The position numbers were made by a program, and so were the translations under genes. Shown here in pieces: positions 4,436 through 39,027 of a DNA stretch of 64,000 bases. Positions within the stretch are counted from its first letter, which is position 1. The number at the start of each line of letters is the position of its first letter. This DNA comes from Escherichia coli (lineage in GTDB: Bacteria; Pseudomonadota; Gammaproteobacteria; Enterobacterales; Enterobacteriaceae): NCBI RefSeq assembly GCF_013122565.1, contig NZ_CP053258.1; one strand, written 5' to 3'. Under the pieces are notes generated by a model that was not told where the DNA came from, made no database searches, and saw only the letters and a program-made list of their open reading frames with translations.

Positions 4436-5209
4436 ATGTCCGAGAATAAATTAAACGTTATCGATTTGCACAAACGCTACGGCGAACATGAAGTGCTGAA
4501 AGGGGTATCACTGCAAGCGAATGCCGGAGATGTAATAAGCATCATCGGATCGTCGGGATCGGGGAAAAGTACCTTTCTGCGCTGCATTAACTTCCTCGAA
4601 AAACCGAGTGAAGGGTCGATCGTGGTCAATGGCCAGACGATCAATCTGGTGCGCGACAAAGACGGTCAACTCAAAGTCGCCGATAAAAATCAGCTGCGCT
4701 TACTGCGCACACGCCTGACGATGGTATTCCAGCACTTCAATCTCTGGAGCCATATGACGGTGCTGGAAAACGTCATGGAAGCGCCGATTCAGGTGTTGGG
4801 CCTGAGCAAGCAGGAAGCGCGCGAGCGGGCGGTGAAGTATCTGGCAAAAGTCGGGATAGACGAACGTGCACAGGGGAAATATCCGGTGCATCTTTCCGGC
4901 GGTCAGCAACAGCGTGTTTCTATCGCGCGGGCGCTGGCGATGGAACCGGAAGTTTTACTGTTTGATGAACCTACCTCGGCGCTCGATCCTGAACTGGTAG
5001 GCGAAGTGTTGCGCATTATGCAGCAACTGGCAGAAGAGGGGAAAACCATGGTGGTAGTGACCCACGAAATGGGCTTTGCTCGCCATGTTTCTACTCACGT
5101 CATTTTCCTCCATCAGGGGAAAATAGAAGAAGAGGGCGCGCCGGAGCAGTTATTTGGCAACCCGCAAAGTCCTCGTCTGCAACAGTTCCTTAAAGGTTCG
5201 CTGAAATAA
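4436..5209 (+). CDS. hisP: Histidine ABC transporter ATP-binding protein (257 aa)
   Basis: Walker [13 protein letters not shown] signature LSGGQQQR and Walker B LLFDEP are all present. Confidence 0.95.
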
Positions 5210-5405
5210 TTTCCTCTCCGGTGGCTAACGCTGCCGGAGTATTTTCAAGGGGAATTTGCGAGTCCGCTTCCGCTGAAATGTAAAAGTTGCAGTCCGCTAA
5301 AAATAGTTCTGAATTCGCTGTCCAAAGATAAAAACTGACTGCTGCATTGGGTGTAAATCGTGGTTATTGTCGCGTCATCTTAAATTTGAGGGGTGACGGA
5401 ACGCC

Positions 5406-6296
5406 ATGACAATATCGACAACTTCCACGCCGCATGATGCGGTATTTAAATCTTTTTTACGCCATCCAGACACCGCGCGGGATTTTATTGATATTCATCT
5501 TCCCGCGCCGCTGCGCAAACTGTGTGATTTAACAACGCTTAAACTGGAACCAAACAGTTTTATTGATGAAGACCTGCGGCAATATTATTCCGACCTCTTG
5601 TGGTCTGTGAAAACGCAGGAGGGAGCGGGTTATATTTATGTAGTGATAGAGCACCAAAGTAAGCCGGAAGAATTAATGGCTTTTCGCATGATGCGCTATT
5701 CCATTGCGGCGATGCAAAACCATCTTGATGCAGGCTATAAAGAGCTTCCATTGGTGATCCCGATGCTGTTTTATCATGGTTGCAGAAGCCCTTATCCATA
5801 TTCACTCTGCTGGCTTGATGAATTTGCCGAGCCTGCGATTGCCCGCAAAATTTATTCATCGGCTTTTCCGCTGGTGGATATTACCGTGGTGCCGGATGAC
5901 GAGATTATGCAACATCGCAAAATGGCGCTGTTGGAGTTAATTCAGAAACATATTCGTCAGCGCGATCTGTTGGGATTAGTCGACCAAATTGTTTCGCTGC
6001 TAGTTACAGGGAACACTAATGACAGACAGCTAAAAGCCCTGTTTAATTACGTATTACAAACGGGGGATGCCCAGCGTTTCCGTGCATTTATTGGTGAGAT
6101 AGCGGAACGCGCACCACAAGAAAAGGAGAAACTGATGACCATTGCTGACAGATTACGTGAAGAAGGCGCAATGCAGGGCAAACACGAAGAAGCCCTGCGT
6201 ATTGCTCAGGAGATGCTGGAAAAAGGATTTGACTACGAAGTCATCCTGACGCTGACCCGACTTTCGCCAGACGATCTTATCGCGCAAAGCCACTAA
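5406..6296 (+). CDS. rpnB: Recombination-promoting nuclease RpnB, transposase-like PD-(D/E)XK family (296 aa)
   Basis: Recognised as YfcI/RpnB (YhgA-like); single gene with no flanking inverted repeats, so not an active IS. Confidence 0.8.
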
Positions 6297-6343
6297 TCCT
6301 GTAACACCGGGAGTTAACTGGCGGATGTTTGCAGTAAACCACA

Positions 6344-7237
6344 TCAGCGAACGACATCCGCCAGCGCCTCTTCTAAATCGTACCAGCGAAACGCAAAACC
6401 CGCTTCTTCCAGCCGTTTAGGCAGCGCGCGTTGTCCACCTAATACCAGTACTGAAGATTCGCCCATTAACAGCCGAATGGCGGTTGCGGGGACGCGCAAA
6501 ATAGCCGGGCGATGCAGCGCATGACCGAGCGCATGGGCAAATTGTTCATGGCGTATCGGGTAGGGCGAAACCATATTAAATGGCCCGCGCAGCTCGTTAT
6601 CCAGCAGCCAGAGAATGCCGTTGACCATATCATCAATATGAATCCAGGCCAGATACTGCCGACCGGAACCAATCGGCCCGCCCAGGCCAAGACGAAACGG
6701 CGGCAGCATTTTACCGAGAATACCACCGTCTGGTGCCAGCACTACGCCGGTACGCAGCAGGCACACTCGCGTTTTGTCACTTTGTGCCCGACAGGCAATT
6801 TCTTCCCAGCGGGCGCAGAGTTTATGGGTAAATTCGTTATGCGGCGGTTCCTCTTCGGTAACCACCACTTCACCTAAGTCGCCATAAAAGCCCGTTGCCG
6901 AGCCGGAAATGAGTACCGACGGTGGCGTGTCGCTGGCATTAATCAAATCGACCAGTTTTTGCGTGATATTCCAGCGGCTTTGGCAGAGACGCTCTTTTTG
7001 CTCGTGAGTCCAGCGTTTATCAGCAATCGGTTCTCCGGCCAGGTTGATTACCGCATCAACGCCGTTGAGGTTGCTTTGATCGGCAAGCCCTTGCCATAGT
7101 GTCACCTGCGGCCCGAGCACGGAACTGGCTTTCTGCGGGTTACGCGTCACTACCGTGATTTTATGGCCCAGATCCAGCAAACGCGGAATCAAATGGCGAC
7201 CAATTAATCCCGTCCCTCCGGTGATCACTATGTTCAT
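6344..7237 (-). CDS. yfcH: NAD-dependent epimerase/dehydratase family protein YfcH (297 aa)
   Basis: N-terminal Rossmann motif [12 protein letters not shown]; conserved position next to folX. Confidence 0.85.
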
Positions 7238-28725: not shown

Positions 28726-28777
28726 CCGAATTTCGATTAACGCTCAGTCTCTGACTGAGAAAACTGGAAGCATGCTA

Positions 28778-35738: not shown

Positions 35739-35968
35739 GTTGTTGGCTGAGTGAATATACCCGGCGTTGCGCCGGGTCTGTGAACTAAGAATAAATTTTA
35801 GGTAACTGTTCCTGAAGTACAGGTGTCATCGGCGAAGTCAGACCGGATACCGCCAGCGCACAGCAACCGGAGCGTACTTAAGTACGTGAGGATTGCGAGC
35901 ACTGCCGGGATTCGGGCTGGCGAGTGAGATAGCCTGAGCAGGAGTAAATATAAGGGACATACTTAGCT

Positions 35969-37498
35969 ATGTTATTACCCTGGTTAATACTAATCCCCTT
36001 TATCGGCGGCTTCCTGTGCTGGCAGACCGAACGCTTTGGCGTCAAGGTGCCGCGCTGGATCGCGCTGATCACCATGGGATTGACGCTGGCGCTGTCGCTG
36101 CAACTGTGGTTGCAGGGCGGTTATTCACTGACGCAATCCGCCGGAATTCCGCAGTGGCAGTCTGAATTCGACATGCCGTGGATCCCGCGTTTTGGTATCT
36201 CTATCCATCTCGCCATTGACGGGCTGTCGCTGCTGATGGTCGTGCTGACCGGTCTGCTCGGTGTGCTGGCGGTACTCTGTTCGTGGAAAGAGATCGAAAA
36301 ATATCAGGGCTTCTTCCACCTCAACCTGATGTGGATCCTGGGCGGCGTTATCGGCGTGTTCCTTGCCATCGACATGTTCCTGTTCTTCTTCTTCTGGGAA
36401 ATGATGCTGGTGCCGATGTACTTCCTGATCGCACTGTGGGGGCATAAAGCCTCTGACGGTAAAACGCGTATCACGGCGGCAACCAAGTTCTTCATTTACA
36501 CCCAGGCGAGTGGTCTGGTGATGTTGATCGCCATCCTGGCGCTGGTTTTTGTTCACTACAATGCGACCGGCGTCTGGACCTTCAACTATGAAGAGCTGCT
36601 GAATACGCCAATGTCCAGTGGTGTGGAATATCTGTTGATGCTGGGCTTCTTCATCGCATTTGCGGTGAAAATGCCGGTGGTTCCGCTGCATGGCTGGCTG
36701 CCGGATGCGCACTCACAGGCTCCGACTGCCGGTTCCGTTGACCTCGCGGGGATCTTGCTGAAAACCGCCGCTTACGGTCTGCTGCGTTTCTCCCTACCGC
36801 TGTTCCCGAACGCGTCGGCAGAGTTCGCGCCAATCGCTATGTGGCTGGGTGTTATCGGCATCTTCTACGGTGCGTGGATGGCCTTCGCCCAGACCGATAT
36901 CAAACGTCTGATCGCCTACACCTCGGTTTCCCACATGGGCTTCGTGCTGATAGCTATCTACACCGGCAGCCAGTTGGCCTACCAGGGCGCGGTAATTCAG
37001 ATGATTGCGCACGGCTTGTCGGCGGCGGGTCTGTTTATTCTTTGTGGTCAGCTTTATGAACGTATCCATACCCGCGACATGCGCATGATGGGCGGTCTGT
37101 GGAGCAAGATGAAATGGCTGCCAGCACTGTCGCTGTTCTTTGCGGTGGCAACGCTTGGGATGCCTGGCACCGGTAACTTCGTCGGCGAATTTATGATTCT
37201 GTTCGGCAGCTTCCAGGTTGTCCCGGTGATTACCGTTATCTCTACCTTTGGGCTGGTCTTTGCCTCTGTTTATTCGCTGGCGATGTTGCATCGTGCTTAC
37301 TTCGGTAAAGCGAAAAGCCAGATTGCCAGCCAGGAACTGCCTGGGATGTCGCTGCGTGAGCTGTTTATGATCCTGTTGCTGGTGGTGCTGCTGGTACTGC
37401 TGGGCTTCTATCCGCAGCCGATTCTGGATACCTCGCACTCCGCGATTGGCAATATCCAGCAGTGGTTTGTTAATTCCGTTACTACTACAAGGCCGTAA
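35969..37498 (+). CDS. nuoM: NADH:quinone oxidoreductase subunit M (509 aa)
   Basis: Antiporter-like membrane subunit; preceded by a 230-bp intergenic gap. Confidence 0.95.
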   Translation: MLLPWLILIPFIGGFLCWQTERFGVKVPRWIALITMGLTLALSLQLWLQGGYSLTQSAGIPQWQSEFDMPWIPRFGISIHLAIDGLSLLMVVLTGLLGVLAVLCSWKEIEKYQGFFHLNLMWILGGVIGVFLAIDMFLFFFFWEMMLVPMYFLIALWGHKASDGKTRITAATKFFIYTQASGLVMLIAILALVFVHYNATGVWTFNYEELLNTPMSSGVEYLLMLGFFIAFAVKMPVVPLHGWLPDAHSQAPTAGSVDLAGILLKTAAYGLLRFSLPLFPNASAEFAPIAMWLGVIGIFYGAWMAFAQTDIKRLIAYTSVSHMGFVLIAIYTGSQLAYQGAVIQMIAHGLSAAGLFILCGQLYERIHTRDMRMMGGLWSKMKWLPALSLFFAVATLGMPGTGNFVGEFMILFGSFQVVPVITVISTFGLVFASVYSLAMLHRAYFGKAKSQIASQELPGMSLRELFMILLLVVLLVLLGFYPQPILDTSHSAIGNIQQWFVNSVTTTRP

Positions 37499-39012: not shown

Positions 39013-39027
39013 GGTGCCCTGACACCA

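Follow-up and report, generated by a model that had tools for sequence, protein, structure and literature searches.

The rpnB locus of Escherichia coli: a gene-within-gene toxin-antitoxin pair and candidate anti-phage system without insertion sequence structure

The gene at positions 5406..6296 of the 64-kb stretch of Escherichia coli DNA analysed here (the window) is the chromosomal rpnB (yfcI, b2305), a gene-within-gene toxin-antitoxin system and a candidate anti-phage system. The original prediction had described a solitary nuclease gene without insertion sequence (IS) structure, and this observation is confirmed. Absent from it was the main published feature of the locus, namely, the antitoxin gene rpnS_B, which lies within rpnB. 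We are confident, at roughly 90%, that rpnB is a toxin-antitoxin module with two products from one reading frame, a toxic nuclease, RpnB_L, and RpnS_B, which blocks it. The toxin-antitoxin picture is already known from the literature, and the lack of IS ends at rpn genes is likewise in print (Zhong et al. 2023). The present analysis makes two small additions, an apparent single scarred deletion allele present in ~12% of the genomes, and the packing of variation into a short stretch of the antitoxin domain. These additions are in line with the published view that rpn genes are conflict systems which evolve fast and come and go through illegitimate recombination, not transposition.

The rpnB locus and its nuclease domain

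The locus is identified as rpnB because of its RefSeq annotation (hisP, rpnB, yfcH) and because the window is collinear with K-12 MG1655, from 2,428,944 to 2,362,476 (reverse strand), at 98.0-98.6% identity. The listing of open reading frames (ORFs) includes an intact ORF at 5406..6296 (+) that starts with ATG and encodes 296 amino acids without an internal stop; 285 of the 296 residues are identical to those of K-12 RpnB. Megablast of the 5100-6500 stretch yielded matches in 5,425 of the 5,426 complete E. coli genomes. The whole stretch is held by 4,748 of these, the matches listed being annotated hisP, rpnB, yfcH in RefSeq, and the whole 1.4-kb region is 95-99% identical in 5,419 genomes. 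The gene and its surroundings are as follows.

4436..5209, + strand: hisP, upstream, same strand (NCBIfam HisP equivalog, 577 bits vs cutoff 466)
5216..5239, + strand: hisP intrinsic terminator, a hairpin of 10 pairs (7 GC) followed by a T-run, tail TATTTTC (terminator scan)
5406..6296, + strand: full-length rpnB coding sequence (RpnB_L, recombination-promoting nuclease, toxin; ORF, PF04754, TIGR01784, RefSeq rpnB)
6344..7237, - strand: yfcH, downstream, convergent (TIGR01777, 361 bits)

The terminator stands between rpnB and the hisJQMP operon. The ORF layout bears out the predicted solitary position between hisP and yfcH, and no second Rpn-like gene was detected in the 64-kb window by tblastn. 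The stop codons of the convergent rpnB and yfcH are only 47 nt apart (6297-6343), and the yfcH-rpnB pair figures in an RNA-seq survey among the overlapping convergent transcripts that are 'excludon' candidates (PMC12288877).

Elsewhere in the window, the K-12 genes yfbN, yfbO and yfbP (K-12 2,387,438-2,389,997) are missing, with ~13 nt in their place (~39013-39027). The nuoL/nuoM boundary (35741-35969, including ~65 nt of the nuoL 3' end) is not aligned to K-12 by megablast, and its length is ~227 nt compared to ~160 nt in K-12. The sole Rfam family match in the 64 kb is the nuoG RNA motif RF01748 at 28728-28770 (+ strand; 50.3 bits, over the gathering score), and no tRNA genes were found in the 64-kb window.

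The Rpn/YhgA family assignment made originally was right. Residues 8-209 of RpnB match the Pfam family PF04754 (Transposase_31, 'YhgA-like') with E=2.1e-91 and 305 bits (cutoff 21), the match extending over positions 1-202 of the 203 in the profile, and the NCBIfam subfamily model TIGR01784 ('Rpn family') scores 190 bits against a cutoff of 52. Two further NCBIfam models, the RpnA equivalog (469 bits) and PRK09956 'ISNCY family transposase' (461 bits), both score under their cutoff of 583. An exhaustive phmmer search returned 8,348 cluster representatives at E<=1e-3, and conservation was assessed in an alignment of 73 full-length homologues with 30-69% identity.

5430..5777, + strand: PD-(D/E)XK nuclease core, residues 9-124
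5436-5438, + strand: codon of catalytic residue D11 (conserved in 72/73 homologues)
5592-5594, + strand: codon of catalytic residue D63 (71/73)
5649-5651, + strand: codon of catalytic residue E82 (70/73)
5655-5657, + strand: codon of catalytic residue Q84 (61/73)
5685-5687, + strand: codon of catalytic residue R94 (63/73)
5892..5903, + strand: PDDE motif, residues 163-166, in the Transposase_31 domain outside its core

The PD-(D/E)XK catalytic residues are thus intact in RpnB and conserved in 61-72 of the 73 homologues. Alignment with the K-12 paralogues (RpnA, RpnC and RpnE) and K-12 RpnB places D11, D63, E82, Q84, R94 and the PDDE motif at the same positions as in RpnA, where mutations at these sites eliminate or change recombination, toxicity and SOS induction (Kingston et al. 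2017, PMC5350276). The D165A mutant of RpnA is hyperactive, and Mg-dependent DNA endonuclease activity has been shown in vitro for RpnA only (PMC5350276). An AlphaFold2 model of RpnB built on the 73-member alignment is confident (pLDDT 92.2, pTM 0.79) and contains, in order, strands 40-47, 63-70 and 73-83, a helix at 91-108 and a strand at 116-124. D63 starts the second strand, E82 lies inside the third, and Q84 just past its end. As modelled, the RpnB core adopts the alpha-beta-beta-beta-alpha-beta arrangement of PD-(D/E)XK nucleases.

The internal antitoxin gene and the variable C-terminal region

The 3' part of rpnB encodes a second product in the same frame. The elements involved, together with the most variable segment of the gene, are listed below.

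6019..6047, + strand: candidate internal promoter of a short rpnS_B transcript, picked by eye (-35 ATGACA at 6019-6024, 17-nt spacer, -10 TTTAAT at 6042-6047)
6123..6128, + strand: Shine-Dalgarno (SD) sequence AAGGAG of the internal start
6135..6296, + strand: rpnS_B, in-frame internal gene starting at M244, 53 amino acids, antitoxin of RpnB_L
6221..6266, + strand: hypervariable patch in rpnS_B, residues 272-287, where 16 of the 31 mismatches with K-12 rpnB fall within 46 nt

Positions 6123-6137 read AAGGAG-AAACTG-ATG, where ATG is codon 244 in the rpnB frame, and the pattern AAGGAG-N5-9-ATG has just 5 occurrences in the 64-kb window, both strands counted. The 20 nt upstream of the internal ATG are identical in all 10 Escherichia rpnB genes compared, with dS elsewhere in the gene reaching ~0.4. 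An SD sequence and an ATG are present at the aligned position in each of the four paralogues, rpnA, rpnC, rpnD and rpnE, and M244 is kept in 64 of the 73 distant homologues.

The product, RpnS_B, is the C-terminal three-helix domain homologous to RpnS. It matches the RpnA-S crystal structure (7TH0) over its full length (phmmer E=4e-5; Foldseek probability 1.00), and the RpnS domain of RpnB superposes on RpnA-S at 1.1 A over 46 residues. The 53-amino-acid RpnS_B has been reported as the antitoxin of full-length K-12 RpnB (Zhong et al. 2023, PMC10327210 / PMC10400941). According to the same work, RpnB_S is detected in vivo, both K-12 proteins, RpnB_L and RpnB_S, are detected and active, RpnB_L is more toxic when RpnB_S is absent, and RpnB-dependent SOS induction is suppressed by RpnB_S, not by RpnA_S. 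The stop-codon control 'RpnBS D29' of Zhong et al. is consistent with the M244 start in the K-12 sequence.

The position of the internal promoter is proposed from motifs. The candidate motif TAATGACAG...CTGTTTAATTA is found again in rpnA and rpnE, differs by one base in rpnD (CTGTTAAATTA) and is absent in rpnC; a promoter scan reported no consensus sigma-70 promoter upstream of 6135. Zhong et al. 2023 state that transcription start sites lie within all rpn genes, as determined by dRNA-seq.

Database comparisons of the C-terminal domain include one misleading signal. PDB matches to designer pentatricopeptide-repeat (PPR) proteins (E to 1e-30) are the sum of ten identical repeats, each domain match amounting to 4-7 bits (i-E 30-260), and the assignment of the RpnB C-terminus as PPR was rejected; the PPR-hairpin-like segment (6171-6257, RpnS_B residues 13-41) is a scoring artefact. 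A newer Pfam family, PF27070 'HTH_Rpn_C', describes the Rpn C-terminal domain and is listed for the genomic contexts (L020-L024) of P0001, the nearest cluster outside Escherichia; the hmmscan Pfam search of the window RpnB did not report it.

The two parts of the gene evolve under different regimes, as estimated by the pairwise Nei-Gojobori method for ten Escherichia orthologues.

Codons 1-243 (nuclease domain): dN/dS 0.00-0.08, dN taken as the baseline
Codons 244-296 (RpnS): dN/dS 0.00-0.96, ~0.4 on average, dN ~10-fold higher on average

The N-terminal 243 codons are strongly constrained, and the RpnS region is hypervariable. The orthologues also differ by a 4-residue indel (GA----MQ vs GRNDGLIL) 11-12 residues past M244 (after codon 255, ~6170), which falls inside the range of 8-20 residues reported for the four-residue repeats of this region (Zhong et al. 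2023). Compared to K-12 RpnB, 2 of the 243 N-terminal and 9 of the 53 C-terminal residues differ. The nine substitutions, E272D, K273R, F275L, Y277R, V279L, I280V, L281M, T282M and L283V, all map to RpnS residues 29-40, and the preceding segment, 6081-6220, shows zero differences from K-12 rpnB.

Among the 5,426 genomes, the last 181 nt are distributed by identity to the window sequence as follows.

At least 99% identical: 4 genomes
95-99% identical: 886 genomes
90-95% identical: 2,553 genomes
80-90% identical: 1,311 genomes

Only 4 complete E. coli genomes, AST215 among them, carry the exact 3' 181-nt allele. Gene conversion from a K-12 paralogue was considered as the origin of the 6221-6266 patch and rejected, as no rpnA, rpnC, rpnD, rpnE or ypaA segment matches it. 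It is conceivable, if still doubtful, that the 46-nt patch is a specificity allele under diversifying selection from phage triggers or inhibitors, which would make chromosomal RpnB an active anti-phage module in this lineage rather than a silent housekeeping relic. Were this the case, natural RpnS_B alleles would constitute non-cross-reacting toxin-antitoxin 'types' within one species.

In RpnB of E. albertii NBRC 107761, four residues, PYPY, are duplicated within the conserved SPYPYS segment (codons ~128-132), and the contig stops 24 nt past the rpnB stop. In strain SCU-172 (NZ_CP054353.1), a ~3-kb insert with two genes, encoding a trans-sulfuration family enzyme and an NhaC Na+/H+ antiporter, separates rpnB from yfcH; ~18 nt short of the rpnB stop, homology to the window is lost, which results in a different RpnB C-terminus (…SPEELLNQKQ).

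Mechanism and physiological role

In the proposed mechanism, RpnB_L (5406-6296) would be a Mg-dependent PD-(D/E)XK DNA endonuclease with little sequence specificity, an excess of which would cause DNA damage, SOS induction and toxicity. RpnS_B, corresponding to the last 53 residues of RpnB_L, would be translated from the ATG at 6135 behind its own AAGGAG, probably off a short internal transcript. The three-helix domain of RpnS_B is predicted to bind the same domain in RpnB_L and thereby block the nuclease. Because one DNA stretch encodes both proteins, RpnB_L and RpnS_B would diversify in lock-step: changes in the hypervariable region would alter toxin and antitoxin together, so that the pair stays matched and insulated from the paralogous Rpn pairs. 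The likely physiological role is phage defence of the abortive-infection type.

To this scheme, our analysis contributes the ORF, its family, the catalytic residues, the internal SD and ATG with their conservation, the structural resemblance to RpnA-S, the two selection regimes within the gene, the lack of IS ends and the synteny. Toxicity, SOS induction and specific inhibition by RpnB_S come from the literature on K-12 RpnB (Zhong et al. 2023), and the present allele, with 9 of its 53 RpnS_B residues different, would presumably behave in the same way. A role in phage defence may be proposed for chromosomal RpnB; the plasmid paralogue RpnP2 is the only one for which phage protection has been demonstrated (Zhong et al. 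2023). PADLOC v2, the library version of which holds no recognising model, gave no match for either RpnB_L or RpnS_B.

A different role has been considered for RpnB, namely, RecA-independent acquisition of foreign DNA, where double-strand cuts made at random would supply the ends that prime template switching and the internal product would merely tune RpnB activity. In conjugal crosses, overexpressed RpnB increased RecA-independent recombination 19-fold (PMC5350276), and the 3-kb two-gene insert of SCU-172 abuts the last ~18 nt of rpnB, which would fit such a role. The recombination effect, however, was obtained on overexpression only, and deletion of rpnA-D left the basal recombination frequency unchanged (PMC5350276), a result that also counts against the toxin-antitoxin module, for which there is no known loss-of-function phenotype. 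A hypervariable, self-matched C-terminal domain and a specific antitoxin fit a conflict system better, and we consider DNA acquisition unlikely to be the role of RpnB. The two roles, DNA acquisition and toxin-antitoxin or defence, are not mutually exclusive.

The toxin-antitoxin module bears on annotation. We suggest that rpnB be annotated not as a transposase or IS remnant but as two products, RpnB_L and the 53-amino-acid RpnS_B starting at 6135, because a single-product annotation hides the antitoxin.

Fixed position, the rpnB-less allele and known systems

In 670 of the 5,426 complete E. coli genomes (~12%), rpnB is missing, in one identical allele. These genomes do without rpnB, which is therefore dispensable. 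The coordinates relevant to this allele are given below.

5316..6317, no strand: segment absent from the rpnB-less allele
6318..6364, no strand: perfect 11-nt inverted repeat I9 (6318-6328 / 6354-6364), which spans the yfcH stop codon

The hisP terminator hairpin (5216..5239) is still present in the rpnB-less allele, the junction of which contains 29 nt foreign to the flanks of the occupied site. Within these 29 nt, ATTTATTCATCAGCGTTTCCGCT runs on into GGCGGATGTT, and the resulting 33-nt scar, located at 1716-1748 of locus L001 (NZ_CP072980.1), agrees with mid-rpnB sequence (5850-5882) in 29 of 33 positions, a score that was reached by none of 2,000 shuffles. The right junction falls inside an imperfect 12-nt microhomology, CTGGYGGATRTT, present at both 5871-5882 and 6318-6329, and the left junction contains 6 nt of unexplained sequence. 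Because of the mid-rpnB scar and these 6 nt, the junction sequence indicates that the rpnB-less allele arose by deletion of a gene already resident, with a scar left behind, and is not an unoccupied target site. It looks like one deletion event that was clonally inherited by the 670 genomes.

Loss of rpnB in 670 of 5,426 genomes, along with the state of the K-12 paralogues rpnD (a pseudogene) and rpnE (an inactive protein), could suggest that rpnB is a non-functional relic drifting to loss. This is very improbable: the ORF is unbroken both here and in each of the 10 orthologues examined, the N-terminal dN/dS is 0.00-0.08 across the genus, all catalytic residues are kept, and K-12 RpnB_L and RpnB_S are detected and active.

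The ends of the locus were assessed by repeat finding and by local alignment, calibrated with shuffles, of both the flanks and the indel borders. Between the left (5210-5420) and right (6280-6346) flanks, the best inverted repeat is 6 nt long, equalled in 96% of the shuffles, and the best direct repeat is 7 nt long, equalled in 53%; with ~315 nt per side, the best inverted repeat is 9 nt long, equalled in 36%. The raw list of repeats offers no better candidate. The terminal inverted repeats (TIRs) and target-site duplications (TSDs) that the original prediction said were lacking are accordingly not found in the flanks above chance level. Two pairs were rejected as element ends, namely, the longest flank pair, I4 (5196-5215 / 6333-6352, 75%), which lies inside the coding ends of hisP and yfcH and persists in the rpnB-less allele, and the I9 repeat, which is host sequence kept in that allele.

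The matches in the 5,426 complete E. coli genomes correspond to a median of 1 place per genome, all chromosomal and none on plasmids. The hisP-rpnB adjacency is also found in E. albertii, E. whittamii, Escherichia sp. E1V33 and sp. MOD1-EC7003, with yfcH and folX downstream in three of these four taxa; the E. albertii contig ends just after rpnB. The scan of genome contigs for orthologues yielded Escherichia only, plus one 55%-identical Erwinia paralogue, and P0001, with 68% identity, occupies an unrelated locus beside EamA and MgtC genes. Members of the Rpn family are present on 4,845 of 72,556 plasmid records, mostly at <60% identity; true RpnB (>90% identity) filed as plasmid is limited to four records of chromosome or very large size (0.37-4.9 Mb) and one of 365 kb. 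Only 11 of 50,697 phage records contain a family member, several of these records being bacterial contigs, and RpnB itself was found in none of the 50,697; a phage origin of rpnB was rejected.

Because the repeats are at chance level, the gene is in a single copy, synteny is maintained, and the 'empty site' is scarred, rpnB is not a mobile element and does not move on its own. The view of rpnB as a domesticated nuclease and not a mobile element thus holds for non-mobility, whereas the word 'domesticated' implies descent from a transposase, of which there is no evidence. According to Zhong et al. 2023 (PMC10327210, section 4), rpn genes have variable ends, with neither TIRs nor TSDs, and probably do not encode transposases; the authors regard the 'transposase' label as an annotation legacy, no autonomous transposase with the PD-(D/E)XK fold being known.

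That rpnB is a decayed or non-autonomous IS, an ISNCY-type transposase gene with eroded ends, is highly improbable: this reading draws on the legacy names (Pfam 'Transposase_31' and PRK09956 'ISNCY family transposase', 461 bits), the family members on 4,845 of 72,556 plasmid records and the presence/absence polymorphism of rpnB in E. coli, but fails every defining test, with PRK09956 below its cutoff of 583, TIRs and TSDs not above chance, a single, non-plasmid copy per genome, hisP next to rpnB in four more Escherichia taxa, strong N-terminal purifying selection (dN/dS 0.00-0.08), an 'empty' allele in which a scar from inside rpnB and 6 unexplained nt at the left junction point to deletion, and a PD-(D/E)XK fold for which no autonomous transposase is known (PMC10327210).

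With IS elements (ISNCY and other families), rpnB shares only the historical 'transposase' annotation and the patchy distribution of its family, many members of which are on plasmids. Unlike IS, it has no TIRs or TSDs, is present in a single copy at a genus-wide fixed position, and has the PD-(D/E)XK fold, not DDE, HUH or serine/tyrosine chemistry. The plasmid-encoded RpnP2 (Zhong et al. 2023) belongs to the same family and has the same gene-within-gene architecture as RpnB, but is plasmid-borne and is the sole member shown to protect against T-even phages. The paralogous pair RpnA / RpnA-S (PDB 7TH0) has the same domain order, the same D11, D63, E82, Q84, R94 and PDDE residues, and an internal translation initiation site (iTIS) at M244; it differs in its locus (feoC-rpnA-bioH) and in the length of the antitoxin (49 amino acids in RpnA_S compared to 53 in RpnS_B), and the RpnA and RpnB antitoxins do not cross-protect (Zhong et al. 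2023). The closest known system is K-12 RpnB (YfcI, b2305) with RpnS_B, as described by Kingston et al. 2017 (PMC5350276) and Zhong et al. 2023 (PMC10327210 / PMC10400941). It has the same locus, hisP-rpnB-yfcH, the same length of 296 amino acids, and 241 of 243 identical N-terminal residues; the catalytic residues, the internal SD, the ATG at M244 and the 53-amino-acid RpnS are all as here, and the nine RpnS substitutions (residues 29-40) that set the present allele apart correspond to 16 nucleotide changes within 46 nt.
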